Source: a virus (Duplodnaviria > Caudoviricetes). Taken from it: a DNA stretch of 64,000 nt. Below the pieces are notes generated by a model that did not search any database, was not told the DNA's origin, and saw nothing but the letters and a program-made list of their open reading frames with translations. Positions 11,608 through 59,403 of the stretch are shown one piece after another; the first letter of the stretch is position 1, and every line of letters starts with the position of its first letter. The DNA is taken from positions 1-64,000 of the IMG/VR virus record IMGVR_UViG_3300048579_000388; one strand, written 5' to 3'. The position numbers and the translations under genes were made by a program.

Positions 11608-11682
11608 TGGTACGCCCAACGGGACTCGAACCCGTGTTACCGCCGTGAGAGGGCGGCGTCCTGACCGCTAGACGATGGGCGC
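11608..11682 (-). tRNA. tRNA-Glu(CTC)
   Basis: Cloverleaf, anticodon arm CCGCC-CTCTCAC-GGCGG, GGTTCGAGTCC T-arm, CCA end. Confidence 0.97.
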
Positions 11683-11692
11683 AGCGCTGACA

Positions 11693-11721
11693 ACTATAGG
11701 CAAGGCCAAAGCCCGCTGCAA
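11693..11721 (-). promoter_or_regulatory. sigma70-type tRNA promoter (similar ones at 11844-11871 and 12059-12087)
   Basis: TTGCAG-N17-TATAGT; others TTGCGT-N16-TATAAG and TTGCGG-N17-TATAAG. Confidence 0.6.
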
Positions 11722-11750
11722 GCGTCATTGTCATGTCACGATTGTCGAAA

Positions 11751-11825
11751 TGGCACGCCCTAGGGGAGTCGAACCCCTCTTCCCAGAATGAAAATCTGGT
11801 GTCCTAACCGATAGACGAAGGGCGC
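11751..11825 (-). tRNA. tRNA-Glu(TTC)
   Basis: Anticodon arm CCAGA-TTTTCAT-TCTGG, T-arm, CCA end. Confidence 0.97.
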
Positions 11826-11971
11826 ATCCGCTTCGATGGCGCCCTTATAACAGCGGATTCGATTCACGCAAGCGGCTCGCGGCAATTCCCTCATAAAAAT
11901 TTCAAGTGATAGATGACGAAATGCCCGGAAGGCATTCAATGCATGGAATAATCGTTGGAAGAGGGAAGAGT

Positions 11972-12046
11972 TGGCACGCCCTAGGGGAGTCGAACCCCTC
12001 TTCCCAGAATGAAAATCTGGTGTCCTAACCGATAGACGAAGGGCGC
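11972..12046 (-). tRNA. tRNA-Glu(TTC), identical second copy
   Basis: 75-nt exact repeat of 11751..11825. Confidence 0.97.
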
Positions 12047-15551: not shown

Positions 15552-15628
<77 letters not shown>

Positions 15629-15646
15629 TCGAAGCCTTTGAAAAGG

Positions 15647-16909
15647 CTATTCATTTTTTCCTCCATCGATAATCCGGACCTTGCCTTGTGAGTGCATTGT
15701 GGGAGCAAGCAGGCTTCTGCGGGTGTACTTTTGGAGCTTGAGGATGATCTCTTCGGTCGCGCGAGCGGGCGCGTCGAGGTAGTCGGGATCGAATTTTTCA
15801 TACCAATCCGTCGTCGACGAGCCGCTGCGAACCCGGTGGCCGAGCCATAGGGATCGCTGCTCACGCGACACGGCGACCTTGGTGCGGCGCATGTAGGACG
15901 CGATGAAGTGGCGCAGGATGTAGCAGGTCATCTCAGGCATCCAGCCGGGATAGATGATCTCGCCGGAATCGCTCACGCGTTGGTCGCGGCGGCCGATCTT
16001 GTTGATGCGCTTTTCGACGACGTCCTGATAGCCGGCGATGGGACGATCGTCCTTCCAGTGCTCCAGCCATGCGGCCAACTGCGTCGTCAGCCGGAGGACA
16101 GGCCGGCGTTTCTTGGTCTGGCGGCGGCCCTTCGGGTTGAGATCGATGAGACCGAATTCATAGTCGACCTGCTCGCTCACGCGCAGATCGAAGATGGCTT
16201 CATTGCGCGCCGCCGTGTTGAGGGCGATGATGACATAGCGGAAATCATCATCCTCCTCGATCCTGTCAATCCACTTGCCGAGCTCCTGGAAGGTCGGCAG
16301 GTATTCGCGCGGGCCGTTGATGTTGAGGCCGAGGTAGTTGGCGATCTCGGCTTCGTCGCAAAAGACCGGGACCGATTCATCGAGCAGGCGCACTTCTGTC
16401 TCCTCGTCGTCGACCATGATGATCTGCGGCAGGGCGCAATAGTTAAGCGCGGCGCGCACCGAAATCATGTAGGTCGAGATGGATTTAGGCGTGAGGCCGG
16501 CGTGGCGGGCCATATGCGACCAGACCTTCTGCTGATTGATGCGGGTGAGACGGGCGACGGTTGGCACGAGCTCGATCGTCGTCATGGCATCGTTGACCAG
16601 CTGGGCCGCGCGGCGGGCGGCCGCCATCTGCTTATAGCCTGCCGGCTCGGCCTTGTATTTCAGGTAGTGGGCGAGGGCGTCGACGAGATAGACCTGGCTC
16701 GGGGCTTTGGAGGAGATGCCTTTGCCGGCGAGAGCTTCGATGAGTTCGTCTTTTGCGTCGGGTAGATCAGTTGCAAGGAGCGCTTTACGCTTAACGCGTC
16801 GGCTTCCGTCATCATACCAATATCGGTAGTAGCCGGGCCGTCCTGGCTCTTGTCCGATCCATTGTCCCTTATATTCGAAGAGCCCCCGAGATCCTCGCTC
16901 TCGTCGCAT
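15647..16909 (-). CDS. int: Tyrosine integrase
   Basis: TAARNEAI, ILRHFIA, WLGH and WY motifs; GAGGA precedes start 16909. Confidence 0.88.
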   Translation of the reverse strand: MRRERGSRGLFEYKGQWIGQEPGRPGYYRYWYDDGSRRVKRKALLATDLPDAKDELIEALAGKGISSKAPSQVYLVDALAHYLKYKAEPAGYKQMAAARRAAQLVNDAMTTIELVPTVARLTRINQQKVWSHMARHAGLTPKSISTYMISVRAALNYCALPQIIMVDDEETEVRLLDESVPVFCDEAEIANYLGLNINGPREYLPTFQELGKWIDRIEEDDDFRYVIIALNTAARNEAIFDLRVSEQVDYEFGLIDLNPKGRRQTKKRRPVLRLTTQLAAWLEHWKDDRPIAGYQDVVEKRINKIGRRDQRVSDSGEIIYPGWMPEMTCYILRHFIASYMRRTKVAVSREQRSLWLGHRVRSGSSTTDWYEKFDPDYLDAPARATEEIILKLQKYTRRSLLAPTMHSQGKVRIIDGGKNE

Positions 16910-17106
16910 GTAAAATCCTCGTTGAAGGCGCGCTCGAGATCGCTGCGCGCGTAGACCTGCTTCCCCTGCCTGCCGCTGAACACCCGGATCATGCGGGCCT
17001 TGCGCCAGCGCGAGATGATTTGTGCGCTCAGCCATGGGTAGTCGTCAAGCGCAGCGTCATGGGTGATCAGGTCGGCAAAAGTCACGGGCTGGAACGGCTG
17101 GGTCAT
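16660..17106 (-). CDS. Excisionase-like HTH protein overlapping the integrase 5' end
   Basis: WLSAQIISRWRKARMIRVFSGRQGKQVYARSDLERAF; position upstream of int. Confidence 0.55.
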   Translation of the reverse strand: MTQPFQPVTFADLITHDAALDDYPWLSAQIISRWRKARMIRVFSGRQGKQVYARSDLERAFNEDFTCDESEDLGGSSNIRDNGSDKSQDGPATTDIGMMTEADALSVKRSLQLIYPTQKTNSSKLSPAKASPPKPRARSISSTPSPTT

Positions 17107-17345
17107 TTCTTCACCGCTCGGCTGAGGTGGGTGGCATAGGCGCCCACGGCCTTCCAGTAAGCTGCCATCGGCGCCTTGTTTCGTTTCCAGCTCACTTGAG
17201 CGCGTTCGCGAGCGTCGGCGCCAAGCTCTTTGAAGATATCGGCCAGAACGGCGCGCGCGGCCGGATCAAGTTCCTTAAGTCGGGCGGCGGAGGGTAGACC
17301 CAGGACGGGGTTCCGAACCTCTGGTTTTGAAGATCTGTCGCTCAT
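17103..17345 (-). CDS. Hypothetical phage protein
   Basis: 80 aa, overlaps both neighbours. Confidence 0.55.
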   Translation of the reverse strand: MSDRSSKPEVRNPVLGLPSAARLKELDPAARAVLADIFKELGADARERAQVSWKRNKAPMAAYWKAVGAYATHLSRAVKK

Positions 17346-17698
17346 GGCGAAACCTCTTCGCACATGGGAATCGATCTAGCGCGGTCGCGTCTGCGGCAGT
17401 TTTCTTTATGAGTGACCAGCTCGAGATGCGTTCGGCCATTTTCATCGATGTCCGGTCGAACACAGAGGCGATTCCTGCAGACGTGGTCGAGCTGCTTCTT
17501 CCCCGGCACGAAGCCGTGCTCATTGGTCCACATGACGATGTGAACGGCGACGGTCTGGCCGTCGAGCGACATGCGCGGATAGTTCTTGCCGCGGCCGCTG
17601 TCGCCGGAGGTCGGCCCAGTCCAGACGTAGCAGCCGGTTAGCTCGTCGATGACGACGCGAGACATGACCTTTTCGCGGATGCGCTGGCGGCTGCTCAT
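17342..17698 (-). CDS. HNH endonuclease
   Basis: GCYVWTG...VHIVMW...LDHVCRNRLCVRPD. Confidence 0.85.
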   Translation of the reverse strand: MSSRQRIREKVMSRVVIDELTGCYVWTGPTSGDSGRGKNYPRMSLDGQTVAVHIVMWTNEHGFVPGKKQLDHVCRNRLCVRPDIDENGRTHLELVTHKENCRRRDRARSIPMCEEVSP

Positions 17699-17922: not shown

Positions 17923-18627
17923 ATGTTTCATGTTCCACAACACTGCGGACGCTGCGGTCACCTCGTCGATTTCAGATTCAGGAACGTCTGGCAGGTCGCC
18001 ATGAGGCCGATAGTGTCTGAGCCCGTGCCGGCGTCGAGGGTTGCGCGAGCGATCGCTTCCGACAATCTCGGTCCTGATGTGAAGGGAGCGGCGGTCGCCT
18101 TCTGTCCGAGGTGCTATTTGCCAAGTCTGATCGACTTCACCACGAAGGAGCGCTACCTCGACGGCATTATTGGAAATCTTGCGAGCGAAGAGGGATTGAT
18201 GGGTGGTCCGGACCTTGTGAAGGTTACGGCCGTCTACCCGCCCGAAGCCAAGCCAGATGAAGATCAGGACTGGCCTTCTGACATCGCTCCGATCTTTCGC
18301 GACGCCCAGAAAATGCTTTCTCAGCAGATGACACCGTCCCTGATCATATCGGCATGCCGATCGGTCCTGGATATGGCCACAGCCCAATTGCTGCAGGGAA
18401 CGCCAGAAAAGGTTCTCATGCGCCGCATCGAGCGACTTCATGCCGATGGGGTTATCACGAAGCCGATTGCGGATTGGGCTCACCAGATTCGCATCGACGG
18501 TAATGAATCCGTCCATGAAGGAAGGGGTGAGGTCGAGGATGCGCGCGTTTACGTGCAATTCCTGAAGATCTTTCTGAATGTCGCCTTCAGCCTTCCGATG
18601 GCCATCGACCGAAAGAAGAACCCCTAG
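17923..18627 (+). CDS. Zn-ribbon plus DUF4145 (HEPN-like) protein, moron
   Basis: CGRC...CPRC; ACRSVLD...L..RIERL...WAHQIRIDGNESVH; antisense to the operon. Confidence 0.75.
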   Translation: MFHVPQHCGRCGHLVDFRFRNVWQVAMRPIVSEPVPASRVARAIASDNLGPDVKGAAVAFCPRCYLPSLIDFTTKERYLDGIIGNLASEEGLMGGPDLVKVTAVYPPEAKPDEDQDWPSDIAPIFRDAQKMLSQQMTPSLIISACRSVLDMATAQLLQGTPEKVLMRRIERLHADGVITKPIADWAHQIRIDGNESVHEGRGEVEDARVYVQFLKIFLNVAFSLPMAIDRKKNP

Positions 18628-18628
18628 T

Positions 18629-19330
18629 CTAGCGCGCATATGACGATCCTCCGTCGTCACTCCACGCCGCGATGGCGACGGGTGCGATCTGTGCGGCGAG
18701 CGTCCGCATCGCCTCGGCGTAGAGGCGGATCTCGTATTGCGCGTGAGGATCCATGCGCAGGTCGAGAAAGCCGAGAAGGTTGCGCAGGTCGACCTTGGCG
18801 AACATGTGGCTGTAGGTCGAGACGGGCAGGAGCGCGCGCGCGAGCTCTCGCGGCCAACCTTTGTCGAGCAGAGTGCGATAATGCTTGAAGGCACGTTCGC
18901 AGCTCGCGCGGTAGAGCTCTACCTCGTGGAAGCGATTACCGATATCGTCTTCGGTACGAAGTGCCTCGCGGCCCTGCTTGTTCGACGTCGACTGCTTTCC
19001 GATCTCGAGGAAGTCGGGCACGTAAAATTCTTCCGGCAGCTCGCGGTAGCGAGCCGAGAGTTCGTTGAAGGCCCAGGTCCGGTGGCGATGCCATTGGCGG
19101 AAGACGAAGATCGGCGCCTTGACTTCGAACTGGAACTCGACCGCCTCGAACGGCGAGGTGTGCCGGTCACGCCATAGGCGGCGGATCAGGCGGGTATCGG
19201 ATCCTTCGTTCTCTCCGGCGCGCCACGCCGCGTCATAGGAGACGCGGGCCGCGCGCACGATCGAGAGATCGCCGCCCATATGGTCGACGAGGCGGACGAA
19301 TCCGTGATCGAGGACGTCGATCTTGTTCAT
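18629..19330 (-). CDS. thyX: FAD-dependent thymidylate synthase
   Basis: HTSPFE...RQWHRHRTWAFNELSARY signature. Confidence 0.93.
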   Translation of the reverse strand: MNKIDVLDHGFVRLVDHMGGDLSIVRAARVSYDAAWRAGENEGSDTRLIRRLWRDRHTSPFEAVEFQFEVKAPIFVFRQWHRHRTWAFNELSARYRELPEEFYVPDFLEIGKQSTSNKQGREALRTEDDIGNRFHEVELYRASCERAFKHYRTLLDKGWPRELARALLPVSTYSHMFAKVDLRNLLGFLDLRMDPHAQYEIRLYAEAMRTLAAQIAPVAIAAWSDDGGSSYAR

Positions 19331-19557
19331 GATGGGTTCCTTTTCAGATAATCAGCCAGTCGAGCGGCATACCAAGCCGATTTTTCGTAGTCCTCGGCGC
19401 CGTTCTTCTTTGATGCGCGCGCCTGGTATTTGATGATGTTGAACTTCATGGCGCCGAAGAATTCGTCGCGGCTGAGCCACGCCTCGAGGACCTTGATGAC
19501 CTCGTAGGGGTTTTCTGCGCCCCCATAGTGGGATGGATGGTCGACTGCGGCGCTCAT
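19327..19557 (-). CDS. DUF3310 family protein
   Basis: VDHPSHY...NIIKY..RA.KKNG.ED..K..WY. Confidence 0.8.
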   Translation of the reverse strand: MSAAVDHPSHYGGAENPYEVIKVLEAWLSRDEFFGAMKFNIIKYQARASKKNGAEDYEKSAWYAARLADYLKRNPS

Positions 19558-20549
19558 CTTGCGAGACCCCTTTTGATGCCGAGGAAATTGAGCAGGTTTT
19601 GGCTGTCGGCCCAGCCGGCGTGACCGATCCACGCCGCAAGGAATTTCTCCAATCGGGCATGGTCTCCGGCCGCGCGATAGGCTCGGATCTTGCGCTTGGC
19701 GCGTATCACGCTGTCACGGCGCAGCAGCTTATGGTTCGGCCAGATGCGGTAGCCGACGAAATTGACGCCGCGACTGACCGGCTGGATGCTCCATTTGGAA
19801 AAGCGCAGGCCAAGCTGTTCGCGCGAGAGCATCTCGATCGAGGCGCGGACGCGACGGAGGTGCTCGGCCGATTGGCCGAGCACGACGATGTCATCCATGT
19901 AGCGATACCAGTAGTGCTCGCCGAGCGTCTGTTGCAGGTGGCGATCGACGACGCCAGCATAGATGTTGGCGAAGATCTGCGAGGCAAGGTTGCCGATCGG
20001 CAGGCCGATGCCTGATCGTGGCACGATCGTCTCGATCAATCGCTGCGTCGCTCGGCAGGAGATCTTTGCCTCGATTAGGCGCCAGAGTACACCATGTTCG
20101 ATGCAGGCAAAGTAACGCGAGAAATCCGTCTTCAGCGCATAGAGCGGCCCACGGTCACGCGAAAGGCGGCGGAGGTCGGCTTGGAGGGTGATCGCCGCTT
20201 GGTGCGTGCCCTTGCCGGGGCGGCAGGCATAGGAGCGGGGCAGCAGTGTCGCCTCGAAGATAGGGCCGATGATGGCGCAAAGCGCCTGTTGCGCCACGCG
20301 ATCCTCGAATGGAAGCGCGGAGATCAGTCGTTCCTTTGGGTCGAAGATCCGGAACTCCTGCGGCGTACCTGGGCGATAGGCGCCATCGCGCATGGCCTGC
20401 GCGAGGTCGGCGAGGTTGAGCGCAGAGAATTCCTTGAATTCCAGATAGCCAGGCGTCAGCCGTTTGCCGCGCGACGTGAGGCGCAATGCCTCACGCATGT
20501 TCGCATCGTCGGTGATGCGACCGATGAGGTTGCGATATTTCTTGGACAT
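19554..20549 (-). CDS. DGR reverse transcriptase (Brt-like, 331 aa)
   Basis: KER.I.ALPFEDRVAQ, SYACRPGKGTH, LKTDFSRYF, GLPIGNLASQIFAN, RYMDDIV, FVGYRI; next to avd and TR. Confidence 0.95.
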   Translation of the reverse strand: MSKKYRNLIGRITDDANMREALRLTSRGKRLTPGYLEFKEFSALNLADLAQAMRDGAYRPGTPQEFRIFDPKERLISALPFEDRVAQQALCAIIGPIFEATLLPRSYACRPGKGTHQAAITLQADLRRLSRDRGPLYALKTDFSRYFACIEHGVLWRLIEAKISCRATQRLIETIVPRSGIGLPIGNLASQIFANIYAGVVDRHLQQTLGEHYWYRYMDDIVVLGQSAEHLRRVRASIEMLSREQLGLRFSKWSIQPVSRGVNFVGYRIWPNHKLLRRDSVIRAKRKIRAYRAAGDHARLEKFLAAWIGHAGWADSQNLLNFLGIKRGLAR

Positions 20550-20777
20550 GATCCGCGGATGAAAATGAATTTGATGAAAATGCCGGTCGCGGGTTTCGAC
20601 GGCTCTGCCGCTACTCCCCGCTGTACCGGACCTTGAAGTGTATTCGCCTAGGCCGGACGGCTGGGCCGACCACCCCCGTGTTTTGCCAGAGGCAAAATCA
20701 CGATGTTGCCAGCCAGAGGCCGCAACGGTGGAAGATGACCGGCGTGACCGTGACCAGCGCCGCGTCGGAAAAGGGTC
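20550..20777 (-). ncRNA. DGR RNA 3' spacer (structured)
   Basis: Lies between TR and RT; hairpin TTTTGCC-TCT-GGCAAAA at 20681-20697. Confidence 0.55.
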
Positions 20778-20898
20778 GTCGCAGGCGCCGCGCGCCCCGA
20801 TGTTCTCGTTCGAGTTCTCGGGCCAGTAGTCCAAGTTCGCGTAGCGGGAGCCGGCGTTGTCGCCGTTGATCCACGAGCCGCCGAAGATGGAAGGACGC
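20778..20898 (-). repeat. DGR template repeat (TR)
   Basis: 121 bp, 22 adenines, six AAC codons; matches both VRs almost only outside adenines. Confidence 0.95.
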
Positions 20899-20905
20899 AT
20901 CGACA

Positions 20906-21283
20906 TCATTGCCCCGACCGCCCGCTTTGCTTCGCCGTCTTGACCCATTGACCCAGCATCGCACCCGTCTCAGCGAGCGGCCGAAAAACCGTGGCGAGCT
21001 GATGAGGGGTGATGATCCTGATGTCTGGGCGAGCGGCGAAGCGAAGAGAAAAACGCAGCGTCGCGAGATGCGCATCGGCCTCATAGAGGCGCGACGGCTG
21101 TTTCGATTTCGCTGCCTGGTAGAGCAGGCGTACTTGTTCCAGCAACAACCCAATGAGATGGTCGCGCAGCGTGCCGTGTTTGCGCGGTCCAGCCTGGATT
21201 TTCGGGTAGATGTAGTTCAAGGCAACCTCGTATTTTTCGATGATGGCCAGATCGCGCGCGTCGATGTTTTCGTCACGGGTCAT
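20906..21283 (-). CDS. avd: DGR accessory variability determinant
   Basis: 125 aa helical, between target and TR; LYEADAHLATLRFSLRFA...ETGAMLGQWVK. Confidence 0.88.
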   Translation of the reverse strand: MTRDENIDARDLAIIEKYEVALNYIYPKIQAGPRKHGTLRDHLIGLLLEQVRLLYQAAKSKQPSRLYEADAHLATLRFSLRFAARPDIRIITPHQLATVFRPLAETGAMLGQWVKTAKQSGRSGQ

Positions 21284-21312: not shown

Positions 21313-21332
21313 GCCTGCGCTTCCGCGCAGGC
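21313..21332 (-). promoter_or_regulatory. DGR target-recognition hairpin after VR1
   Basis: GCCTGCGC-GGAA-GCGCAGGC at the stop codon. Confidence 0.85.
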
Positions 21333-22258
21333 TAAGCAGGGCTCAGGTGGCCGCAGGCGCCGCGCGCCCCGATGTATCCGTGCGAGTACCCGGGCCAGTA
21401 GTCCAAGCTCGCGGAGCGGGAGCCGGCGTAGTCGCCGTTGACCCACGAGCCGCCGAAGATGGAAGGACGCGGGATATCCGGGTGTCCATCCGTGCCCCAC
21501 TGCCACACGGTTCCCGTGGCATCGAACAGCCCGTGCTTGCTGATGAAGCGGTGTCCTTCATCGCTCAGCGTGCCGGTGATTTTGGGATCGCGATCGCGCG
21601 AGCATCGCTCTTCCACGCCATAGGCGGCGGCGAAGAATTCTTCGGCAAACAGAAGGCGCTTGCCATGGGCCGCGTAGATTTCGACCGCCGTAGCGTAGTC
21701 AAGCTTCTTTGTCTTTTCGGATCCGTCAGGATGATCCGGCAAATCCCGACCGTCGGCGATAACGGCGCCACAGCGGCTGGTGCCGTGCGCCAGATGGTCG
21801 GTGCCGAGCAGATAGATATCAACCCAGAAGCGGAGGCCATGCATTTCGACGAAGGTCATGCCGCGCGGGTCTTTGCAGGCCGGGCGGAAGTCGAGATCCC
21901 ATAGCGAGAATGGGTTAATCGCCGGAACAGCGTCGCCGCCTGCTTTGCCAAGGGCATTGCCGCCCGGTGCGAAATGGAAGCCGGCGAAGGCGCCGCTGGC
22001 GACAACACCTGGATGTGCCGGCGCCGCGAAGGGCGCGCCCGACACATCGACATCGATGGCGTAATCGCAGCCAGGCTTCAGCTCGTCGGTTTCGATCGCT
22101 GTATCACTGTCGAAGGCGACCTTGCGGCCGTCGATCTCGATCACGGTTCCGCCTCGGATGGCAATGTCGGCGCGGCCTGCGGTGACGAGAATGGATTTCG
22201 AGGCCTCATGGCGGGCGATCCGGATCGGACGCGAAAGGGTTTCTGCAACTGCAGTCAT
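21332..22258 (-). CDS. DGR target 1, Mtd-like C-type lectin-fold protein
   Basis: GFHFAPGG, INPFSLWDLDFRP, DPRGMT, WVDIYLLG, FGGSW...IGARGAC; VR at C-terminus. Confidence 0.9.
   Translation of the reverse strand: MTAVAETLSRPIRIARHEASKSILVTAGRADIAIRGGTVIEIDGRKVAFDSDTAIETDELKPGCDYAIDVDVSGAPFAAPAHPGVVASGAFAGFHFAPGGNALGKAGGDAVPAINPFSLWDLDFRPACKDPRGMTFVEMHGLRFWVDIYLLGTDHLAHGTSRCGAVIADGRDLPDHPDGSEKTKKLDYATAVEIYAAHGKRLLFAEEFFAAAYGVEERCSRDRDPKITGTLSDEGHRFISKHGLFDATGTVWQWGTDGHPDIPRPSIFGGSWVNGDYAGSRSASLDYWPGYSHGYIGARGACGHLSPA
21350..21470 (-). repeat. Variable repeat VR1
   Basis: 11 mismatches to TR: 10 at TR adenines, 1 G-to-A. Confidence 0.95.
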
Positions 22259-22289
22259 GGGTCTATTCCTTGATTGTGGGGAGGGGCAG

Positions 22290-22309
22290 GACTGCGCTTT
22301 CGCGCAGTC
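22290..22309 (-). promoter_or_regulatory. DGR target-recognition hairpin after VR2
   Basis: GACTGCGC-GAAA-GCGCAGTC at the stop codon. Confidence 0.85.
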
Positions 22310-23517
22310 TAAACAGGACGCAGGTGGTCGCAGGCGCCGCGCGCCCCGATGGTCTCGTCCGAGTGCCCGGGCCAGGAGTCCAAGTCCGCGTAGCGGGAGC
22401 CGGCGCCGGCGCCGTCGAGCCACGAGCCGCCGAAGATGGAAGGACGCGAGAAATCCGGATCGCCATCGGTGCCCCAGATGTGCATGTTGCCGGTGGCCTG
22501 CATCAGGCCGAAACGGCTGGTGCGCGGGGCGTCCAGGCAGGTCTGTTCCGGTTCGCGGGGCGCGGCGGACTTCTCGGTCACGCCATAGGCGGCGATGCGG
22601 AACTCGTCGTATGTCGGCAAGCGTTTGCCGTGCTCGGCCATGATTGCCTTTGCCGTTTCGTAATCGAGCTTATCGAGCGACCAGCCATCGGCGATCGTTG
22701 CGCCGCGATGGCTCGTGCCTGATGTCTTGTGGTTGGTGCCGAGCAGGTAGATGTCGAACCAGCAACGGATGCCATCGGCCTCGACGAGCGTCATACCGCG
22801 CGGATCGGGGCAGGATGGGCGGAAGTCGAGATCCCAGAGGGAGAAGGGATTGATGGCGGGCTCACTGTCGCCGCCGGAGCGAGCTTGCGCATGACCACCG
22901 GGCGCGAAGTGGAAACCCGCGAAGAAGCTTGCGTTCAGCGGGTTGGCGCCGACAGGCGTTGCGATCGGCTCGCCTTTGGCGTCGAGCGTGATGGCGTAGT
23001 CGCGGCCCGCCGCCAGATCGGCGATCGGGACCGTGACAGGATTGGGGAACGCGTGCTCCGTCTCGTCGATGCGAATGACCGTGCCGGCGCGGATGGCCAG
23101 CTCAGTCTTGCCGTGGGCTGAGAGAATGGGGAGCGAAACATCCGGGCGCGTGATGAGGGTTGGCGCTCCAGCGCTTCTCGGCGCGGCCGTGACCAGTCGC
23201 GTGACCAATCCAACCTTCTCGCTCGTTGTATTGAACTTTGCCGGCACCGCTTCGCCGAACAGGTCAATGCCTTCATCCATAGCGATAAGGTCAGCGCAGA
23301 TGACGACGTCGGCCAGTTCTTCTGCCAGTTGCTGGCGTGACGCCCGTGATCCAGGCAGGCCGATGCGCTCGCGGTCAATCTTCTTGATGACGTTGCAGGC
23401 TTCGCCGACTTCTCCGGCGAGCTCATTGCCGCGATAAGCGAGTGTGATCTTGTTGTCCTTATCCCATTCCTTCTGGCGCGCGACATTAGCCGAACGCAGA
23501 TCATTGAAGCTGCTCAT
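22309..23517 (-). CDS. DGR target 2: MazG-like NTP pyrophosphohydrolase fused to Mtd-like lectin-fold domain
   Basis: aa 1-108 ELAGEVGE...EELADV...KFN; remainder paralogous to target 1, with VR2. Confidence 0.88.
   Translation of the reverse strand: MSSFNDLRSANVARQKEWDKDNKITLAYRGNELAGEVGEACNVIKKIDRERIGLPGSRASRQQLAEELADVVICADLIAMDEGIDLFGEAVPAKFNTTSEKVGLVTRLVTAAPRSAGAPTLITRPDVSLPILSAHGKTELAIRAGTVIRIDETEHAFPNPVTVPIADLAAGRDYAITLDAKGEPIATPVGANPLNASFFAGFHFAPGGHAQARSGGDSEPAINPFSLWDLDFRPSCPDPRGMTLVEADGIRCWFDIYLLGTNHKTSGTSHRGATIADGWSLDKLDYETAKAIMAEHGKRLPTYDEFRIAAYGVTEKSAAPREPEQTCLDAPRTSRFGLMQATGNMHIWGTDGDPDFSRPSIFGGSWLDGAGAGSRYADLDSWPGHSDETIGARGACDHLRPV
22327..22447 (-). repeat. Variable repeat VR2
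   Basis: 11 mismatches to TR, all at TR adenines. Confidence 0.95.
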
Positions 23518-24656
23518 AGTGTAATCCCCTGGATTTTCATGGGTACGAGGAGGGTGAAATCGTCGGGCTTGCCGACGGGGCGGAGAATGCTGTTGTCGGT
23601 CGCCCGATTGAGCAGAAGTTCGACCTGGTCACCGGCATGATGGGCCAGCGCCTCACTGAGATATTTGCCGTTGAAGGCGATGGTGATTTCGAGATCGGCC
23701 TCGGCCGGGATCTCGTCCTCGCCTTCGCCGGAGCGGAAATCCTTGGCGGCGAGCGTGACGGTGCCGGCCTCGAAGGCGAAGGTCATGCCCTTCGATGCAT
23801 CCGGCGTGGCGATGAGGACGCGCTCGACCGCGCTCGCCATCGCCGCGCGCGAGAACTGGGCCGAATGGCTGTTCTGCCGCGCTGGCCGGGTGAGCGCGCC
23901 CCAGTCAATGAACTGGGCGTCGATCAGCTTCGAGATCAGGGTGATGGTGCCCGCGGTGACCACCATGCGCTCCTCGGCAAAGCCAAGCGTGATATCGTCG
24001 AAATCGCCGGCGAGCTTGAGGATCCGACCGACGGTGTCTGACGGCACCAATGTGGGCGGGATGGATGCGAATGGATCCTCGGGGTCGAAGGCCATGGCAG
24101 GGATCAGGCGCCGCTCGATGCGATATCGATCGGTGGAGACGAGGTTGAGGCCATCCTCGGCGCCCTGCATGAAGACGCCGCAGATATAGAGGACGGTCTG
24201 GTCCTTCGATGTGGCGTATTCCACGGCCGAAAGCGCTTCGGCGAGGATGCCGGAATCAAGCCTGACCTTGTGAGTGAGATTGCCCGCGTCGAGCTTGGGA
24301 TAGTCCGACGCGGGCAGGACCGGCACCTTCAGGCGGGAACGGCCGGATTTGAGATTGATATGCTCGAGGCGGCCGTCTTCGATGATCGGTTCGACCGTGA
24401 TGGCGGTGTCGGGGGCTCGCTTGACGAACTCCACCATCGGCTGGATGGGGCAGGTGAAGGGCGTGAAGCCCGATGCTGCGGTTGCTTCGAAGGTGCAGGT
24501 CAGCTCGATATCCATGCTGCTGCCGCGCGCGACGAAGGTTTCGTTCTCACGGGTTATGAGAACATTCTGCAGAATGGGCGTCGTGTGCTTCGGCCGGATG
24601 GCCGGCTGCACGGCCGCGAGCGCCGCGGCGAGGGCGGCCTTGTCAGCTTTGAGCAT
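23514..24656 (-). CDS. dnaN: DNA polymerase III beta sliding clamp (phage copy)
   Basis: TPILQNVLI, VSTDRYRI, LISKLIDAQFIDW, IAFNGKYL; 380 aa. Confidence 0.9.
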   Translation of the reverse strand: MLKADKAALAAALAAVQPAIRPKHTTPILQNVLITRENETFVARGSSMDIELTCTFEATAASGFTPFTCPIQPMVEFVKRAPDTAITVEPIIEDGRLEHINLKSGRSRLKVPVLPASDYPKLDAGNLTHKVRLDSGILAEALSAVEYATSKDQTVLYICGVFMQGAEDGLNLVSTDRYRIERRLIPAMAFDPEDPFASIPPTLVPSDTVGRILKLAGDFDDITLGFAEERMVVTAGTITLISKLIDAQFIDWGALTRPARQNSHSAQFSRAAMASAVERVLIATPDASKGMTFAFEAGTVTLAAKDFRSGEGEDEIPAEADLEITIAFNGKYLSEALAHHAGDQVELLLNRATDNSILRPVGKPDDFTLLVPMKIQGITL

Positions 24657-24853: not shown

Positions 24854-25363
24854 CTAGAACGGGATGTCGTCGTCCATGTCCCGGCTGAAGCTGGGCGGAG
24901 ACGATGATGTTGATCGGCGGGAATTCGACTGCCCCCCCGTCGAGCGGCCGGCAGCGCGGTCGCTGTCGTAGCCGTAATCGTCGGGCTCGCCAGCGGGCGG
25001 TCGATTGGAAGGCTGCTTGTCGAGCAGGTCGAGGGCGCAGTTGAAACCCTGCAGCACGACTTCGGTCGTGTAGCGGTCTTGGCCGGACTGATCCTGCCAT
25101 TTGCGGGTGGTCAGATGGCCCTCGATAGCGACGAATGATCCCTTGTGGACGCGCTCTTCGCAGAGCTTCGCCAGCCCCTCGGCGAAGATGACGACCGTGT
25201 GCCATTCGGTCTTTTCCTTCCACTCGCCGGATGCGCGATCCTTCCAGCTTTCGGAGGTCGCGATCCTGAGATTGGCGATCGGGCGCCCGTCCTGGGTGCG
25301 GCGGATCTCCGGCTCAGCGCCGACATTGCCGCGCAGCATCACTCGGTTCATGTAGCGGGACAT
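24854..25363 (-). CDS. ssb: Single-stranded DNA-binding protein
   Basis: NRVMLRGNVG.EPEIR...TEWHTVVIF...DDDIPF. Confidence 0.95.
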   Translation of the reverse strand: MSRYMNRVMLRGNVGAEPEIRRTQDGRPIANLRIATSESWKDRASGEWKEKTEWHTVVIFAEGLAKLCEERVHKGSFVAIEGHLTTRKWQDQSGQDRYTTEVVLQGFNCALDLLDKQPSNRPPAGEPDDYGYDSDRAAGRSTGGQSNSRRSTSSSPPSFSRDMDDDIPF

Positions 25364-25731
25364 CAGGCGACCTCTGCGTTGGCGATGGGCGGAGAAGACT
25401 GCGGCGGCTCGGCCGGCATGCAGGCGGCGATGCCGAGAAGCGCGGTGGCGAGAATATGGATGTGCTGCGATCCGGTCAGCGCGATCGGATCCGAGGCGCA
25501 GACGGCGATAGCGAGCTCGATCGCCTTGTCTGGATCGACCGGGCCAACGATCAGGCGGCCGCCTGGCGCGGTGAGGACGAAGCAGCCCTCGTTGTAGACC
25601 GCGACGGCCGGTGAGCCGTCCTTAGCCGTGCCTGTCCTGACCTCGCCACCTTCGATCACCGAGTAGATGGCGCGTCCCTTGGGCAAGGTGACGAGCGGCT
25701 CGGGTGCGATGCGGATTTCGTCGCGCTTCAT
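25363..25731 (-). CDS. Hypothetical protein
   Basis: 122 aa from MKRDEIR; overlaps neighbours. Confidence 0.55.
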   Translation of the reverse strand: MKRDEIRIAPEPLVTLPKGRAIYSVIEGGEVRTGTAKDGSPAVAVYNEGCFVLTAPGGRLIVGPVDPDKAIELAIAVCASDPIALTGSQHIHILATALLGIAACMPAEPPQSSPPIANAEVA

Positions 25732-26399
25732 GCGAGCCTCGCCTGGGCTGCGATCGCCGAACGATGCGCGATGCGCTCTGGCGTGATCATGTCGCTCAGC
25801 ATGACGACAAATTTTTCCTCTGCGACGCCGGGCAACCACGGCTTGATTGCCCCCGTCGTCTTGGGAATGGTTAATTTGGGAAACTGGCGCTCGGCGCGCT
25901 TGCCAAACAGGGCGACGGCTTCGGCCGCGCACATGCGATCGTCCATCGCCTTCACCAGTTTCCGCTGTTTCGGCGACCACTCGGCCGGCAGCGGCAGGCC
26001 GGCGGCGAGATAGATCACATCGTCCCAGCGCGCCTTGGCGAGGTTGATGGCCTCTTTAACCGCCAGCGTCGGCAGCATGCCGCAGAGCAGCTGTTCCATC
26101 GGTCTGGTTATGTCGCCCAACGCCCATTCATGTGCGTCATGCAGCAGGAAGAGTGCTGCAGTCTGTTTGTCAGCACCTTCATTGATCAGTGCTTGAGCGC
26201 CCATCACAGAGTGCTGCGCGACCGAATAGGCAAGGCCGCCAGGAATGCCATTGAAGCGGGCGATGCGTGAGAGCGTGCCAGAGATCTCGATAAAGCAGAC
26301 CGAGGCCGGATCAGGCTGGGCCAGATCCTTGATGGTACCGTCGCGATTGAAGGACGGAATCATTCGATCGACCAGGCGTGGGAGATTGGCTGCCTTCAC
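25728..26399 (-). CDS. HD-domain phosphohydrolase (YfbR-like 5'-deoxynucleotidase)
   Basis: LSRIARFNG...YSVAQHSV...LLHDAHE..LGDI; GTGA start/stop overlap. Confidence 0.85.
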   Translation of the reverse strand: MKAANLPRLVDRMIPSFNRDGTIKDLAQPDPASVCFIEISGTLSRIARFNGIPGGLAYSVAQHSVMGAQALINEGADKQTAALFLLHDAHEWALGDITRPMEQLLCGMLPTLAVKEAINLAKARWDDVIYLAAGLPLPAEWSPKQRKLVKAMDDRMCAAEAVALFGKRAERQFPKLTIPKTTGAIKPWLPGVAEEKFVVMLSDMITPERIAHRSAIAAQARLA

Positions 26400-26656
26400 T
26401 CGACACTCCATTCGGCGCGGCGCTGGCGCGCAAAGCCTTCGAAATTGGGGAATTTTTCGTCGATGGCGGCATGGTTGCCCGCCACAAAACAGGCCGCGAA
26501 TTCATGCGGCATGTCGCAGCCTTCCTCGGCGACGAAATCCATCGCCACCCGCCAAGGGATGGTGCCGGCCTCTATGATGGCGCGGCTGCGGATGAACTGC
26601 CATGCGACAACGAGCAGGAGGATGAAGACGAGAGCGGTGAGGAGGGTGGTCAGCAT
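26396..26656 (-). CDS. Small membrane-anchored protein
   Basis: N-terminal hydrophobic helix. Confidence 0.55.
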   Translation of the reverse strand: MLTTLLTALVFILLLVVAWQFIRSRAIIEAGTIPWRVAMDFVAEEGCDMPHEFAACFVAGNHAAIDEKFPNFEGFARQRRAEWSVE

Positions 26657-28422: not shown

Positions 28423-28728
28423 ATGATGGGCTTGGCGGATCCCGTGTTGAATGATGCTAACGTCATCTCGATTGAGTGCGGCGATTGCGGACGCAGCAGA
28501 TGGAGGAAGCCGGCTCAGCTTCTTTCGAGAAAAATTTCGCTGTCAACGCCGCTGAGCGAAGTCGTCTCCAAATTCTACTGCCTTCCCTGTAGAGAAGAGG
28601 GTTCAGACGGCAAGAATGTCACGGTGGACGTTATGTTTTGTGTCGATTTCGACCGGGTGACTGCTGAGCAGGCAGTACTTAGAACCCAAGTAGTTCTTTC
28701 GTCGGGATTACACGCCAAAGCGTCTTAA
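28423..28728 (+). CDS. Small Zn-finger protein, probably SOS-inducible
   Basis: CGDC...CLPC; follows SOS box; convergent with cI. Confidence 0.65.
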   Translation: MMGLADPVLNDANVISIECGDCGRSRWRKPAQLLSRKISLSTPLSEVVSKFYCLPCREEGSDGKNVTVDVMFCVDFDRVTAEQAVLRTQVVLSSGLHAKAS

Positions 28729-29374
28729 CGCCGTAGCGATCAAAAATCAGTTCCCGTTCTGGGTTGAACTGTTTGACAACAATATCCTTCGACGTACGGC
28801 GTAGCAGTCGCTTGACGAATGCTTTCCCGGCCTCGCCCTCGTTTTCAGGGAACATTTCAATTACCACATCATCCCCGGGAACAGGTTCGCGTCCCCCGCA
28901 GACAATTACCTCGCCAGCGGAGAATCGGGGTTCCATGCTGTCGCTCAATAGATTGAGCGCGAAGACGTTACGAACGTTGGCAATGCCAGGTGGCCTCCGA
29001 ATGTAGCTTGCCACCTCGCCGTTAAAGGAAAAATCTCCTTCGTCCCCGCCGTAGGCAACGCCGCGCACCTCGAGATCCATCGGGCCTAGCGCATTCGCTG
29101 GGGTGAGATCTGTCACGATTTCTGCGTCACCGAGATCGTCATCTCCCAAATAGATAAGTTCACCGCGGGTCAAGGCGGTCGGATCAACGCGAAGCTTTTC
29201 GGCGGTCCTTACCAAATTCTCAGTCGAGGGAAGGTTTGTGCCGATTTCCCACTGTCCCACGGCGGCGGTTTTAACGCCCACGTGTTCGGCAATATTGCGC
29301 TGAACGAGGCCGCGCCTTTTTCGCGCGGTCCGGATAGCTATGCCGATCTGCTGTGCCAGCGTGCCTTTAGTCAT
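28679..29374 (-). CDS. cI: CI/LexA-family repressor (HTH plus S24 peptidase)
   Basis: N-terminal HTH; SDSMEP and FVKRL Ser-Lys dyad motifs. Confidence 0.92.
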   Translation of the reverse strand: MTKGTLAQQIGIAIRTARKRRGLVQRNIAEHVGVKTAAVGQWEIGTNLPSTENLVRTAEKLRVDPTALTRGELIYLGDDDLGDAEIVTDLTPANALGPMDLEVRGVAYGGDEGDFSFNGEVASYIRRPPGIANVRNVFALNLLSDSMEPRFSAGEVIVCGGREPVPGDDVVIEMFPENEGEAGKAFVKRLLRRTSKDIVVKQFNPERELIFDRYGVKTLWRVIPTKELLGF

Positions 29375-29455
29375 GCTTATAATTGGGCTTGGCCCAACCT
29401 TCCGGTCTACATAATTATCGCTTGCACGAATTTGTAATTTATGCTTATAAGCGGC
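29372..29455. promoter_or_regulatory. OR switch region
   Basis: AT-rich gap with TGCTTATAA twice, including palindrome GCTTATAAGC. Confidence 0.6.
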
Positions 29456-29456
29456 C

Positions 29457-29675
29457 ATGACTGATCAACTTGCCATGTCTGAACTGTACGAGAAGGCTGG
29501 TAGCGCGTCCGAATTGGCGCGCCGGCTCGGGATATCGCCATCTGCTGTTCTGCAGTGGGATAAAGTGCCGGCCAACCGTGTCTTAGCGGTTGAGAAGATC
29601 ACTGGGATCTTACGACATCTTCAGCGCCCTGACATCTTTGGCGATGCGCCCGTTGTGCCGGAGGCCGCCGAATGA
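29457..29675 (+). CDS. cro: Cro/YdaS-like regulator
   Basis: ELARRLGISPSAVLQWDKVPANRVLAVE...RPDIFG; divergent from cI. Confidence 0.85.
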   Translation: MTDQLAMSELYEKAGSASELARRLGISPSAVLQWDKVPANRVLAVEKITGILRHLQRPDIFGDAPVVPEAAE

Positions 29676-55968: not shown

Positions 55969-56163
55969 ATGGCCAAGAAGCCGACAACCAAAGCTGCGCC
56001 CGATATCAATCCGGAGGCGCAGTATGACGTCACGCTGAAGCGGCCGATCAAGCTCGGTCGCTCCGGCACCTATGCACGGCCGGGCCTTCCCCTGACGCTC
56101 AGTGGCGCCCGTCTCCTCGAACACTTGGAAGACGTTGATGGCTACACAGAAGTCACTGGCTGA
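55969..56163 (+). CDS. Small tail-associated protein
   Basis: 64 aa with strong RBS. Confidence 0.55.
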   Translation: MAKKPTTKAAPDINPEAQYDVTLKRPIKLGRSGTYARPGLPLTLSGARLLEHLEDVDGYTEVTG

Positions 56164-58180
56164 GCAGGTCCGTCTCGACGAGGATTGGGAACTCAGCCTC
56201 GAAAATATCGCGCTGCTGCTCGGCGCGATCGAGGCGCGGCTCAAGACGATCGAGATCAAGGGCGCGGATTTCGACGTCGTGCGCGACCAGGTGCTCGGCG
56301 TGCTGCTGGCGCGCATCAACGAGGTTCTGACACCGCAGATCAATGCGATCAGCAACATCGTCAATATGGGCTTCCTGATCGCCTATTCGGACAGCTCGGC
56401 CGCTCTGGCGCCTGGCAATGTGCTGCTCTTCACCATTGAGGACGAAGAGCAGCGCATGGTATTCACCCCGTCGCCGCGCGTCAGCTTGAGCCGTGTGGCC
56501 AACTATACCGACTATGCCATTGCCCAGGTGTCCGACTGGAACCGGGAAACCGGCGAGCTGGTGGTTGTCGTGGAAGCTGCCTGGGGCAACCCTGGGCCGT
56601 TTACCGACTGGGTCATTGCCGCTCTGCCTGGCGATACGCTGGCTGCTATTCAGGCGGCCGACGAAGCCATCACCGCCATGAACCTGTCCAAGGATTGGGC
56701 CCAGAAGGGTGACGGGCTCGACGTCGATGGCGTTGGCACGCGATCAGCCAAGCACTATGCTGGCGCGGCGCTGGCGAGTGCCTCTGCTGCCGGCGGTTCG
56801 GCATCGACGGCAAGCGGCGCGGCGACAACGGCCACAGGCGCGCGGGACACCGCGGTTGCAGCCAAGGATCTCGCGGTTACCAAAGCAGCTGAAGCTGCAG
56901 CGTCGGCGGCCTTGATCTCAGGCGGACCGGTGACTTCGATCAACTACAAGACCGGCGTCGCCTTTACAGACCCGACCAAGGTGACAGAGGTCAAACCGAC
57001 ATTGGATTTCGACCTCACGAACCTCAACGGCGCGCCGTTCTTCGACAGTTTCTCTCGGCCGTCGATCGGCGGATACCGGCGGAACCACAAAGGCGTGATT
57101 GTCCCGACGACGTTCGATGAGCCTTATGTCGATCGGGACACGGATGGCAAGGCCAAAGGAACGGGATTTTTTGGGGCCTATTCGAACCTGTTGGTTCGGT
57201 CGGAAGAATTCGACAATGCTGTCTGGACAAAGACCAATGTGACACCAACTGCCAATTCGACAATTGGCGCCGACGGTGCGCAGTCCATGGACACCTTGAA
57301 TGCGACCGTGAATAGCGGGGTCGTCTTTCAGAATTACATGAGCGCTCCCGGTTCGACAAAGCACCGACTTTGCGTCCGGCTGAAGCAGGGTACGGCCGCA
57401 TTCACGCGCTGCTATCTTGGCTTTCTCGGCGGCTCATTCAGTTACGCCATCGCTCTGATCGATTGGTCAGCAAAGACGGTGTCAACGTTCGCCGGTGGCG
57501 CAACTTCGGTTTCGGCAAGTTTGGTCGACTTAGGCGGAGGCATCTATGAACTGACCCTCTACGGCGTCGATGGCGGCAGCGCCAACACCTATGTGCAGTG
57601 GGCGATCGAACCGGCCTATAATTCCACGGGAACAGTTATCGCGGGGCAGGCCGAACTCACCCAAACCTCGTTTGCGGTGCCGTACATGCCGACGACGTCA
57701 GCCGCGGCGGCGCGCTCTGCCGACAGCATGATCATCTCGGGAACGGACTTCACGGATATCTTCAACCCGCTCGAAGGTACTTTCTACTGCGAATTCGCGC
57801 CCGGGCAGGCGAGCGGTTTTCCTGGCGTGTTCGCAGCTCAGGACGGTCCTGGCACCAACCGGATTGGACTTCTGCAGAATGGCACCTCGCTCACGTCGAT
57901 AGGCGTTGTAAAAGCGGCAGGCGTTGATCAGGCAACGTTGAGCCCCGCGGCGTCGACGCTCGGTGTATTCGACCGCGTGTCCCTCTCTTACGCTGCCAAT
58001 ATGGCTCGGCTCTCGAGGAATGGCGCCGCTGTCGTAACCGACAGTAGCGTCACCCTGCCGACCGGCCTCTCTGCGCTGATTATCGGCTACTACGACGCCC
58101 CGCTGAACGGCTTCATTCGCCGCCTCATCTATTGGCCGGAGGCGCTTTCCGCAAACGAACTGCAATGGATGACAGCATGA
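56138..58180 (+). CDS. Tail fiber/spike protein 1
   Basis: Ala-rich stalk, then NLLVRSEEFDNAVW...LamG-like IRRLIYWP C-terminal region. Confidence 0.8.
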   Translation: MATQKSLAEQVRLDEDWELSLENIALLLGAIEARLKTIEIKGADFDVVRDQVLGVLLARINEVLTPQINAISNIVNMGFLIAYSDSSAALAPGNVLLFTIEDEEQRMVFTPSPRVSLSRVANYTDYAIAQVSDWNRETGELVVVVEAAWGNPGPFTDWVIAALPGDTLAAIQAADEAITAMNLSKDWAQKGDGLDVDGVGTRSAKHYAGAALASASAAGGSASTASGAATTATGARDTAVAAKDLAVTKAAEAAASAALISGGPVTSINYKTGVAFTDPTKVTEVKPTLDFDLTNLNGAPFFDSFSRPSIGGYRRNHKGVIVPTTFDEPYVDRDTDGKAKGTGFFGAYSNLLVRSEEFDNAVWTKTNVTPTANSTIGADGAQSMDTLNATVNSGVVFQNYMSAPGSTKHRLCVRLKQGTAAFTRCYLGFLGGSFSYAIALIDWSAKTVSTFAGGATSVSASLVDLGGGIYELTLYGVDGGSANTYVQWAIEPAYNSTGTVIAGQAELTQTSFAVPYMPTTSAAAARSADSMIISGTDFTDIFNPLEGTFYCEFAPGQASGFPGVFAAQDGPGTNRIGLLQNGTSLTSIGVVKAAGVDQATLSPAASTLGVFDRVSLSYAANMARLSRNGAAVVTDSSVTLPTGLSALIIGYYDAPLNGFIRRLIYWPEALSANELQWMTA

Positions 58181-59403
58181 CCATAGCAACACGTCATCGC
58201 GGAGGCTTGATGGGCATGGAGCATGCCCGCAAGCTCGACAAGATCAAGGCGGATATTCTGCTCAGCGATCCCGCCGCCTATGGCGATATTGCGCCGACGC
58301 TGGATCTCGACTTCACCAATATCTATGGCGCGCCGTTTCCGGGGAATTTTAGCCGCCCCACCATTGGCGGCTACCGGTTGAATGCCAAGGGCGTGATGGT
58401 CCCGACCGTGGCCAATGAGCCGAATATTGATTTCGGGACCGATGGCAAGCCGCTCGGGACCGGGTTCTACGGCGCCTATACGAACCTGTTGACGTGGTCC
58501 GAAGACTTCACCAATGCAGCTTGGACGAAGGGGCCAAATGTAACGGTCACCCCAAACAACGTGGCAGCCCCTGACGGGAACCTAACGGCTGATCGCATTG
58601 CCGCCAGCAGCGGCGACAATGCTATGTCTCAGAGCGCATTGGTCACCGGCAACCAGTACTACACCTTTAGTATTTGGCTGAGATCAGACAGTTCAATCGG
58701 CCTGACCTTGCTCATTTTCGACGGAACGGGGGGCGGAAACACCACCCTTAATGTCACCGCGACGACCGACTGGCAGCAGTTCAGCCTGACGAGGCTCGTG
58801 CCGGCGGGGCAAACTGGTGTTGTTTGTTACATCGGCGGCGCGGGATCATTTACGAACGAGACTATTTACGCCTGGGGTGCTCAGCTCACCGCCACCGCTT
58901 TCCCGGTTCCCTATGTGCCGACCACATCGGCAACGGTGGCTCGGAATGCGGATGTCTTCTTACTGTCCGGCACTGATGTAACCGATGCCGCGAACTCGCT
59001 TGAAGGCACGTTCTATGCGGAGGCGTATGCGCCGCGCAGCCTCTCCGGCTATCCAGCTCTGCTTCAGCTCGATGACGGCGGGTTCAACAATCGCAGCGTC
59101 ATTTTCTACAACAGTGCGGGGCAAGCAATCGGAGCAGGAACCGACGTCGCAGCCGTCAACACTGCCACCTTTACTTCGCAGACAATCAGCCGCGGCTCTT
59201 TCTTCCGGTTGGCTTACACGTACAAGGCCAACGCCTTCGTCTTTGTTGTGAACGGTGCTCCAATCCTGACGGACACCGCTGGTGCAGTGCCCAGCGGCAT
59301 GAACCGCATCCGGATCGGGGATACCTGGGATGAGCACATCCGCCGAGTCATCTACTGGCCCAAGGCGTTCTCCGCGCTCGACATGAAAAGGATCACGGCA
59401 TGA
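58177..59403 (+). CDS. Tail fiber/spike protein 2, paralog of the fiber 1 C-terminal half
   Basis: PTLDLDFTN...[14 protein letters not shown]...IRRVIYWP. Confidence 0.8.

Follow-up and report, generated by a model that had tools for sequence, protein, structure and literature searches.

A phage diversity-generating retroelement among replication genes, with Mtd-like targets that lack the beta-prism and one predicted MazG-like enzyme fusion

What does a phage diversify when its targeted hypermutation cassette lies among replication genes? Phage diversity-generating retroelements (DGRs) are usually explained by a single model, that of phage BPP-1, which diversifies the tip of its tail fibre to switch receptors. 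The window analysed here, the first 64,000 nt of the 74,453-nt virus record IMGVR_UViG_3300048579_000388, holds most of a prophage whose DGR is placed between the beta clamp gene dnaN and the thymidylate synthase gene thyX and has two target genes. From gene context, we put at roughly one half the probability that these targets are soluble binders of the cytoplasm, produced along with the early genes, that are diversified by the DGR and bind a variable intracellular ligand.

All parts of the DGR lie on the minus strand. The reverse transcriptase (RT; 19554-20561; PF00078, RVT_1, E-value 1.7e-17) and the accessory variability determinant bAvd (20906-21283; PF22296, E-value 1.6e-23) flank the template repeat (TR; 20774-20898), which was recognized as a repeat family and by alignment with two variable repeats (VRs), VR1 (21346-21470) inside target 1 and VR2 (22323-22447) inside target 2. 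TR, VR1 and VR2 can be aligned over 125 nt at 90% identity. Mismatches between TR and VRs fall on TR adenines in 21 of 24 cases (10 of 12 in VR1, 11 of 12 in VR2), while adenine accounts for 21 of 119 TR bases; at 15 of these 21 adenines, one VR or both carry a substitution. Each VR stops 14 nt short of the target stop codon, both share a GC-rich 3' segment past which TR diverges, and a perfect hairpin with a four-base loop follows each stop codon immediately (GGAA loop at ~21314-21331 after target 1, GAAA loop at ~22290-22309 after target 2). Every DGR feature that we examined is present: an RT beside TR, adenine-specific differences, Avd, and a VR at the C-terminus of a lectin fold with its hairpin. 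Since 21 of 24 mismatches lie at TR adenines and both VRs retain the hairpin after the stop codon, the locus is, to judge from its bases, a complete and genuine two-target DGR that was recently active.

The targets are homologues of Mtd, the receptor-binding protein of BPP-1. Target 1 (21332-22258, minus strand) encodes 308 residues from its ATG, a short Mtd homologue with the beta-sandwich and the C-type-lectin fold, while target 2 (22309-23517, minus strand) encodes 402 residues, of which residues ~109-402 (22309-23193) form the Mtd-like part. They are 54% identical to each other and 37% identical to Mtd. The shared motif AIRGGTVI/AIRAGTVI is preceded in target 1 by 32 residues, and homology starts ~20 residues before the motif. 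Residues 120-399 of target 2 align with Mtd residues 55-378 (1yu4, E-value 2.5e-43). Target 1 matches PF21916 (E-value 2.3e-6) above the cut-off of 24.6 bits, slightly under which target 2 remains with 23.4 bits; target 1 also matches phrog_11262 (E-value 5.1e-74, profile positions 78-390 of 393). In the PHROG 'tail protein' profile that contains Mtd, the match of the targets begins only at position 69-78 of 393. The predicted structure of target 1, calculated from a 116-sequence alignment with a predicted local distance difference test score (pLDDT) of 85.9, superimposes on Mtd (1yu2) with a Z-score of 36.1 and a root mean square deviation of 2.8 Å over 292 residues. Model residues 8-308 correspond to Mtd residues 51-381, and the first ~50 residues of Mtd have no counterpart. 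The lectin or formylglycine-generating-enzyme (FGE) fold of the model is further related to FGE, TvpA and TaqVP with Z-scores of 10-12. A tblastn search of the window with the first 60 residues of Mtd gave no match at E<=1. A prediction of target 1 as a homotrimer (three copies) scored 0.00 against a mark of 0.42 and carries no weight either way.

By alignment and predicted structure, both targets are thus Mtd homologues that retain only the beta-sandwich and the variable C-type-lectin domain and have no beta-prism. A reading of this locus from its letters alone, termed here the sequence-only reading, had described targets that share a domain starting at this motif, with ~30 residues ahead of it in target 1, and that lack the N-terminal Mtd domain; both descriptions hold. 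We take Mtd residues 1-48 to be the beta-prism and to form the apex that faces the fibre, as the structural literature on BPP-1 has it; that the beta-prism acts as virion anchor would likewise follow from BPP-1 by analogy.

The cassette is embedded in a gene string of replication and nucleotide functions. From ~29.5 to 15.6 kb, the minus strand forms a single string that leads from a cI-like repressor, followed by small open reading frames (ORFs), to the integrase, in the order deoxyribonucleoside 5'-monophosphate (dNMP) phosphatase, ssb, dnaN, target 2, target 1, avd, TR, RT, DUF3310, thyX and, after further genes, int. The stop codon of dnaN (23514-24656, minus strand; phage beta clamp; PF00712, PF02767, PF02768) overlaps the start codon of target 2 as ATGA. 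On the other side, the RT stop overlaps the start of the DUF3310 gene (19327-19557, minus strand; PF11753, E-value 3.3e-16), whose stop in turn overlaps the start of thyX (18629-19330, minus strand; PF02511, Thy1, E-value 2.3e-55). These three junctions, from which translational coupling had been proposed, are all seen in the sequence. Through these overlaps of stop and start codons, the cassette is joined into the repressor-to-integrase arm between dnaN and DUF3310-thyX. Upstream of dnaN follow SSB (24854-25363, minus strand; PF00436, E-value 1.8e-32) and an HD-type dNMP phosphatase (25728-26411, minus strand; phrog_318, E-value 1.5e-37), whose gene is kept beside SSB in 18 related loci. With dNMP phosphatase, MazG, ThyX and DUF3310, the operon has a strong nucleotide-pool character. 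Gene order and overlapping codons are the two grounds on which the targets would be expressed early. Consensus scans for promoters and terminators between 15500 and 30000 returned no more sites than shuffled sequence and have no bearing on transcription units.

If the targets are early cytoplasmic binders, the following course can be envisaged. They would be transcribed and translated together with the genes for replication and nucleotide functions and would be soluble proteins of the cytoplasm, not tips of tail fibres. RT, Avd and TR RNA would be made at the same time, so that VR codons would be rewritten during induction or replication and progeny genomes would carry variants. The hypervariable lectin face would then bind a strain-variable intracellular ligand, most likely a protein of the host or of a rival element, or a nucleotide-derived molecule. 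Consequently, the cassette would adjust the range of usable hosts after DNA entry and not at adsorption.

The N-terminus of target 2 adds a further link to nucleotide metabolism. Its first 108 residues (23194-23517, minus strand) are fused in frame to the Mtd-like part and share up to ~80% identity with stand-alone MazG-like proteins ~105-125 residues long, which they match through to the C-terminal ...TRLVAA of the latter. Profile searches relate this part to phrog_229 (E-value 1e-6) and to the MazG structure 1vmg (E-value 0.0022), while the Pfam family PF03819 stays below its cut-off (19.4 against 22 bits) and a single-sequence search of the PDB gave dCTPase without significance (E-value 0.42). 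The acidic residues of the EXXE ... EXXD-type motif, E32, E36, E39, E67 and D70, show no variation across 37 homologues, and target 2 has all of them. In the structural model, the part folds as a four-helix bundle (helices 7-18, 26-51, 61-81 and 86-101; pLDDT ~83), for which Foldseek finds mouse dCTPase with a probability of 1.00 and a template modelling score of 0.63-0.65 and also lists cyanophage S-2L MazG and Bacillus MazG. In a model of full-length target 2 from a 68-row alignment, the MazG part alone is reliable, the Mtd part reaching a pLDDT of 30-70. Sequence and model together identify the N-terminus of target 2 as a whole predicted MazG-like nucleoside triphosphate pyrophosphohydrolase that takes the place of the beta-prism. 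The predicted fusion shows target 2 to work in the same compartment as a nucleotide enzyme.

The MazG-like domain is joined to the Mtd part without a linker, which fits two coupled genes that have lost the stop codon between them, and this is probably how the fusion arose. The ~110-residue domain occurs in 332 longer proteins (221-704 residues), with an Mtd partner in target 2 only. Few of the others have a Pfam partner; among them are fusions to DUF551, DUF1937, Lar restriction alleviation and deoxyribosyltransferase-like domains and to unannotated segments. Because the partners in these 332 proteins are so varied, the MazG-like domain fuses readily with adjacent genes, and the MazG-Mtd fusion is a singleton. 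As a separate observation, the many MazG-like fusions suggest frequent read-through between coupled early genes, or miscalled genes.

An enzyme domain of this kind next to a variable binding domain also resembles a sensor with its effector. The targets might accordingly be prophage defence proteins, hypervariable cytoplasmic sensors that are expressed in the lysogen and recognize proteins of superinfecting phages; in the fused forms, the nucleotide-hydrolysing domain would serve as effector by depleting the nucleotide pool or changing it. We regard this as improbable, although several points go with it: the cassette lies downstream of cI on the same strand, bacterial conflict systems diversified by DGRs have been proposed (PMC10053308, PMC10907252), and a possible defence gene, weakly PD-T7-4-like, is found nearby on the other strand. 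Against it, ssb, dnaN, thyX and the RT are lytic-cycle functions that are normally silenced by the repressor; a DGR silent in the lysogen could therefore not build a repertoire there. Moreover, most members of the target family are unfused, and neither target matches any of the defence models in PADLOC. NCBIfam contains no model for the targets either.

Is the placement among early genes a peculiarity of one prophage? The sequence-only reading had proposed a survey of homologue neighbourhoods, which was carried out here and returned the same layout almost throughout. Target 2 has 1,364 homologues, the best 120 of which are nearly all ~290-residue proteins from Rhizobium, Agrobacterium, Shinella, Brucella/Ochrobactrum, Mesorhizobium and related metagenome-assembled genomes. 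The survey comprised 124 related loci with 77 distinct cassettes; 38 loci were fetched from species-representative genomes and 79 from IMG/VR. Cassettes lie among early genes and away from the tail-fibre operon in 76 of the 77, their neighbours being DnaN, SSB, repressors, methylases, primases and integrases. In all seven relatives whose genes were called, targets, Avd and RT are on one strand among early genes; DnaN is in the same string in six, a cI-like helix-turn-helix repressor upstream in five, and a Pfam-confirmed integrase within 10 kb in five. With the window's own proteins as queries, 55 of the 124 loci had early markers, and 2 had structural markers, within 10 kb of the cassette. 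For 37 non-redundant cassettes, the four ORFs nearest to each end were assigned to Pfam families: upstream these included DnaN (8), repressor domains (5-7), DUF5131, SSB and methylases, downstream integrase (10), DUF5131 (9) and methylases, and no tail family was in the top 25 on either side. Placement in the early region is thus the rule in a large clade of alphaproteobacterial phages. Besides, DUF5131 proteins are unusually common near the cassettes (4 upstream and 9 downstream among the 37 loci), and DUF7220 and MT-A70 methylases are frequent neighbours as well.

The reduced form of the targets recurs in the clade. No room for an N-terminal domain exists in 165 of 197 Mtd-like ORFs, most family members being unfused, and the N-terminal peptides of the targets are short and not conserved between phages. 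Two targets are present in 67 of the 124 loci and three in another 3. Where an enzyme is fused, its nature differs. One locus (L001) carries a PF04447 dATP/dGTP pyrophosphohydrolase at the target N-terminus (E-value 7.5e-24), and L002, L047 and P0075 carry a Nuc_deoxyrib_tr-like domain there, matched weakly (E-value 0.016) over nearly the whole profile. A single-sequence search of the PDB with the N-terminus of P0061 gave CMP N-glycosidase without significance (E-value 0.57), and the deoxyribosyltransferase-like assignment is tentative for the fusions in P0061 and P0075. Of the targets in L001 and L002, the one that comes first behind DnaN carries the fusion. Including target 2, three different cytoplasmic nucleotide enzymes are fused at target N-termini, namely MazG-like, PF04447 and, tentatively, deoxyribosyltransferase-like. 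Long N-terminal extensions in L036, L077, L114, L027, L058, L079 and L088 were discarded as out-of-frame, Arg/Pro-rich artefacts of GC-rich DNA.

A blastn search of the entire 74,453-nt record with TR matched VR1 and VR2 and gave no third VR. In the late operon, the three genes for tail or tail-fibre proteins (56102-60404, plus strand; phrog_5939 and tail-fibre PHROGs) therefore carry no VR, as the sequence-only reading had noted, and are not DGR targets. The distance of ~33 kb claimed between cassette and tail fibres applies to the prophage map; on the excised circle the shorter arc is ~18 kb, and the cassette gene set and the tail gene set converge there on opposite strands. The BPP-1 fibre protein Bbp9 has no match in the window. 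Among the 124 related loci, Bbp9 and the first 60 residues of Mtd are matched only in L043 (77-12700), a BPP-1-like element of Castellaniella that served as positive control for the canonical tail context; it encodes a homologue of Bbp9 (50% identity), an Mtd of full length whose N-terminus is 77% identical, and an upstream ORF of 2,297 residues. Two features that define the Mtd family are lacking in the targets of the window, namely its N-terminal domain and its location in a tail module.

Further, the cassette is independent of the virion module. Five viral genomes that are at least 93% complete share with the window's phage only the RT (61-76% identity), Avd and the targets, and homologues of its three tail-fibre proteins were not detectable in any of the five. 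A sheath is present in the window's phage (G000) and in G004, weakly matched in G002, and without a match in G001, a complete genome with terminal repeats, as well as in G003 and G005. In all five relatives the cassette is located within the group of replication genes or upstream of it, and its strand may be that of the terminase or the opposite one. Gene content thus indicates that the cassette moves between phages with unrelated virion modules and is tied to no particular virion.

Mobility of this kind raises the question whether the cassette serves the phage at all. It might be a selfish DGR module of phage early regions, in which truncated Mtd genes are kept only as substrates for retrohoming, with little benefit to the phage. 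That the cassette alone is common to otherwise unrelated phage genomes, and that fusions with neighbouring genes occur, would be in keeping with such a module. We nevertheless hold it to be very improbable: conserved full-length frames with many invariant scaffold residues are maintained in >1,300 homologues, both VRs and their signals are intact, and the targets are often duplicated, as the loci with two or three of them document.

Since the cassette is a mobile module, gene position alone may have changed, and the targets may still be receptor-binding proteins. Made from the leftward operon, they would persist and dock on the tail or its fibres through the apex of the beta-sandwich or through the N-terminal peptide, and the DGR would switch adsorption tropism, as it does in BPP-1. 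This is the main rival of the cytoplasmic proposal, and we consider it the less probable of the two. It draws on the strong homology to Mtd, which includes the VR scaffold, on the annotation of the PHROG family as 'tail protein', and on a survey in which most viral targets of its main viral DGR clades are annotated as tail proteins (PMC8144416). N-terminal peptides that differ between phages are, moreover, what docking peptides might look like. One surveyed locus, L037 (7306-19993), a Bradyrhizobiaceae element, has a short-Mtd cassette that is bordered directly by ParB and methylase genes on one side and, on the other, by genes for a phrog_17470 protein, a tail fibre, a fibre-assembly protein and sheath. 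Several features are difficult to reconcile with docking on the virion. The beta-prism, the fibre-facing apex of Mtd, is absent, as is a Bbp9-type fibre; across six genomes with differing virion modules, no tail-fibre protein co-occurs with the cassette; codon overlaps tie the cassette to dnaN and thyX, and its placement among early genes recurs in 76 of the 77 that were surveyed; and bulky enzyme domains are fused at the very end that would face the fibre.

The proposal of soluble cytoplasmic binders has to bear several objections of its own. Gene position does not fix function, and an early protein needed in few copies could persist until assembly. With 37% identity to Mtd, for which receptor binding is proven, the targets keep its variable face, and their short, non-conserved N-terminal peptides could be phage-specific docking peptides. 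The cassette of L037 is situated two genes upstream of a tail-fibre gene, this being the only surveyed locus in which a short-Mtd cassette abuts tail genes. The MazG-Mtd fusion may be a neutral accident, because an Mtd partner is unique to this genome among the 332 longer MazG-like proteins. Finally, a tblastn search of 50,697 GenBank phage records with target 1 revealed no isolated phage with a close homologue; matches were confined to BPP-1-type, Synechococcus and Marinomonas phages and engineered T7 records.

The sequence-only reading had taken the targets for a tropism-switch fold repurposed for an intracellular function. Absence of the beta-prism, embedding in the early operon, conservation in the clade, enzyme fusions and mobility agree with that view, and the position of L037 beside tail-fibre genes speaks against it. 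For the clade as a whole we would go one step further only tentatively: a large group of temperate phages may hypermutate an early-made cytoplasmic binder, sometimes fused to a nucleotide-processing enzyme, in place of a tail-fibre tip. The binder would recognize partners in the cell that vary between strains, for instance defence proteins of the host or their nucleotide signals, so that the DGR would act as a diversifier of post-entry host range or of counter-defence, a counterpart of tropism switching inside the cell.

The remaining genes place the cassette within a temperate phage. A tRNA-Pro(TGG) gene (15552-15629, plus strand; ARAGORN) provides with its 3' 48 nt the attL core (15582-15629), an exact direct repeat of which forms attR at 72319-72366 of the full record, beyond the window. 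Because the tRNA-Pro 48-nt repeat recurs there, the prophage is ~56.7 kb long, integrated at tRNA-Pro, and extends 8.4 kb past the window end. A tyrosine integrase (15647-17035, minus strand; phrog_1, E-value 3.1e-16; no Pfam match at E<=0.01) is the last gene of the leftward arm, which also contains an HNH gene (17342-17698, minus strand; family match) and is headed by the cI-like repressor (28679-29458, minus strand; helix-turn-helix and S24 peptidase; PF01381, PF00717, phrog_35). Divergent from the repressor, a Cro-like gene (29457-29675, plus strand) opens the plus-strand series from 29.5 kb, which continues with SNF2 helicase, methylase, primase and D5 helicase and then with terminase, portal, capsid, baseplate and tail genes, the three tail or tail-fibre genes, and sheath. 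Between thyX and HNH, a DUF4145 protein is encoded on the opposite strand (17923-18627, plus strand; PF13643, E-value 4.2e-13; phrog_1305); it matches the PADLOC defence model PD-T7-4 weakly (E-value 1.2e-4), so that the prophage may carry a defence gene here. Three tRNA-Glu genes stand in tandem in the flanking host DNA (11608-12046, minus strand), upstream of the prophage.

With at least 77 distinct cassettes and >1,300 homologous proteins, the clade departs from the BPP-1 layout. We found no paper that describes this clade, its early-gene arrangement or the enzyme fusions, in a literature search of incomplete coverage. Should the targets work intracellularly, adsorption would not be the only purpose for which phages use targeted hypermutation, and the clade would be a natural source of diversifiable intracellular binders. 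Should they be located on virions, the clade would offer a new mode of attachment for an Mtd-type receptor-binding domain together with an unusual regulatory placement.

How does the locus compare with known systems? At the end of the BPP-1 late operon, mtd comes directly after the fibre gene bbp9 and is succeeded by avd, TR, brt and lysis genes. The order of target, Avd, TR and RT, the adenine-specific mutagenesis from TR to VR and the hairpin after the VR are common to both DGRs, and the targets are homologous to Mtd over beta-sandwich and C-type-lectin domains (37% identity, Z-score 36.1). In contrast to BPP-1, whose Mtd has the beta-prism and bbp9 as neighbour, the present phage lacks both; its cassette has two targets, one of them with a MazG-like enzyme, and is placed between dnaN and thyX on the repressor-to-integrase arm. 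In cellular DGRs, the partner domains of the targets are of kinase and NTPase type, unlike MazG, and these targets should be unrelated to Mtd outside the generic lectin fold. Cytoplasmic multidomain targets are known from cellular DGRs of cyanobacterial regulators (PMC7517822) and of putative antigen sensors in multicellular bacteria (PMC10907252). There, as here, the variable domain is C-terminal to enzymatic or signalling domains that are not exposed on a surface, and an intracellular ligand is presumed; those systems are chromosomal, whereas the present one is phage-borne. The stand-alone MazG-like proteins of phages, finally, resemble the N-terminus of target 2 in sequence (up to ~80% identity), in the intact acidic motif and in the predicted four-helix bundle, but here the domain is joined without a linker to a DGR target.

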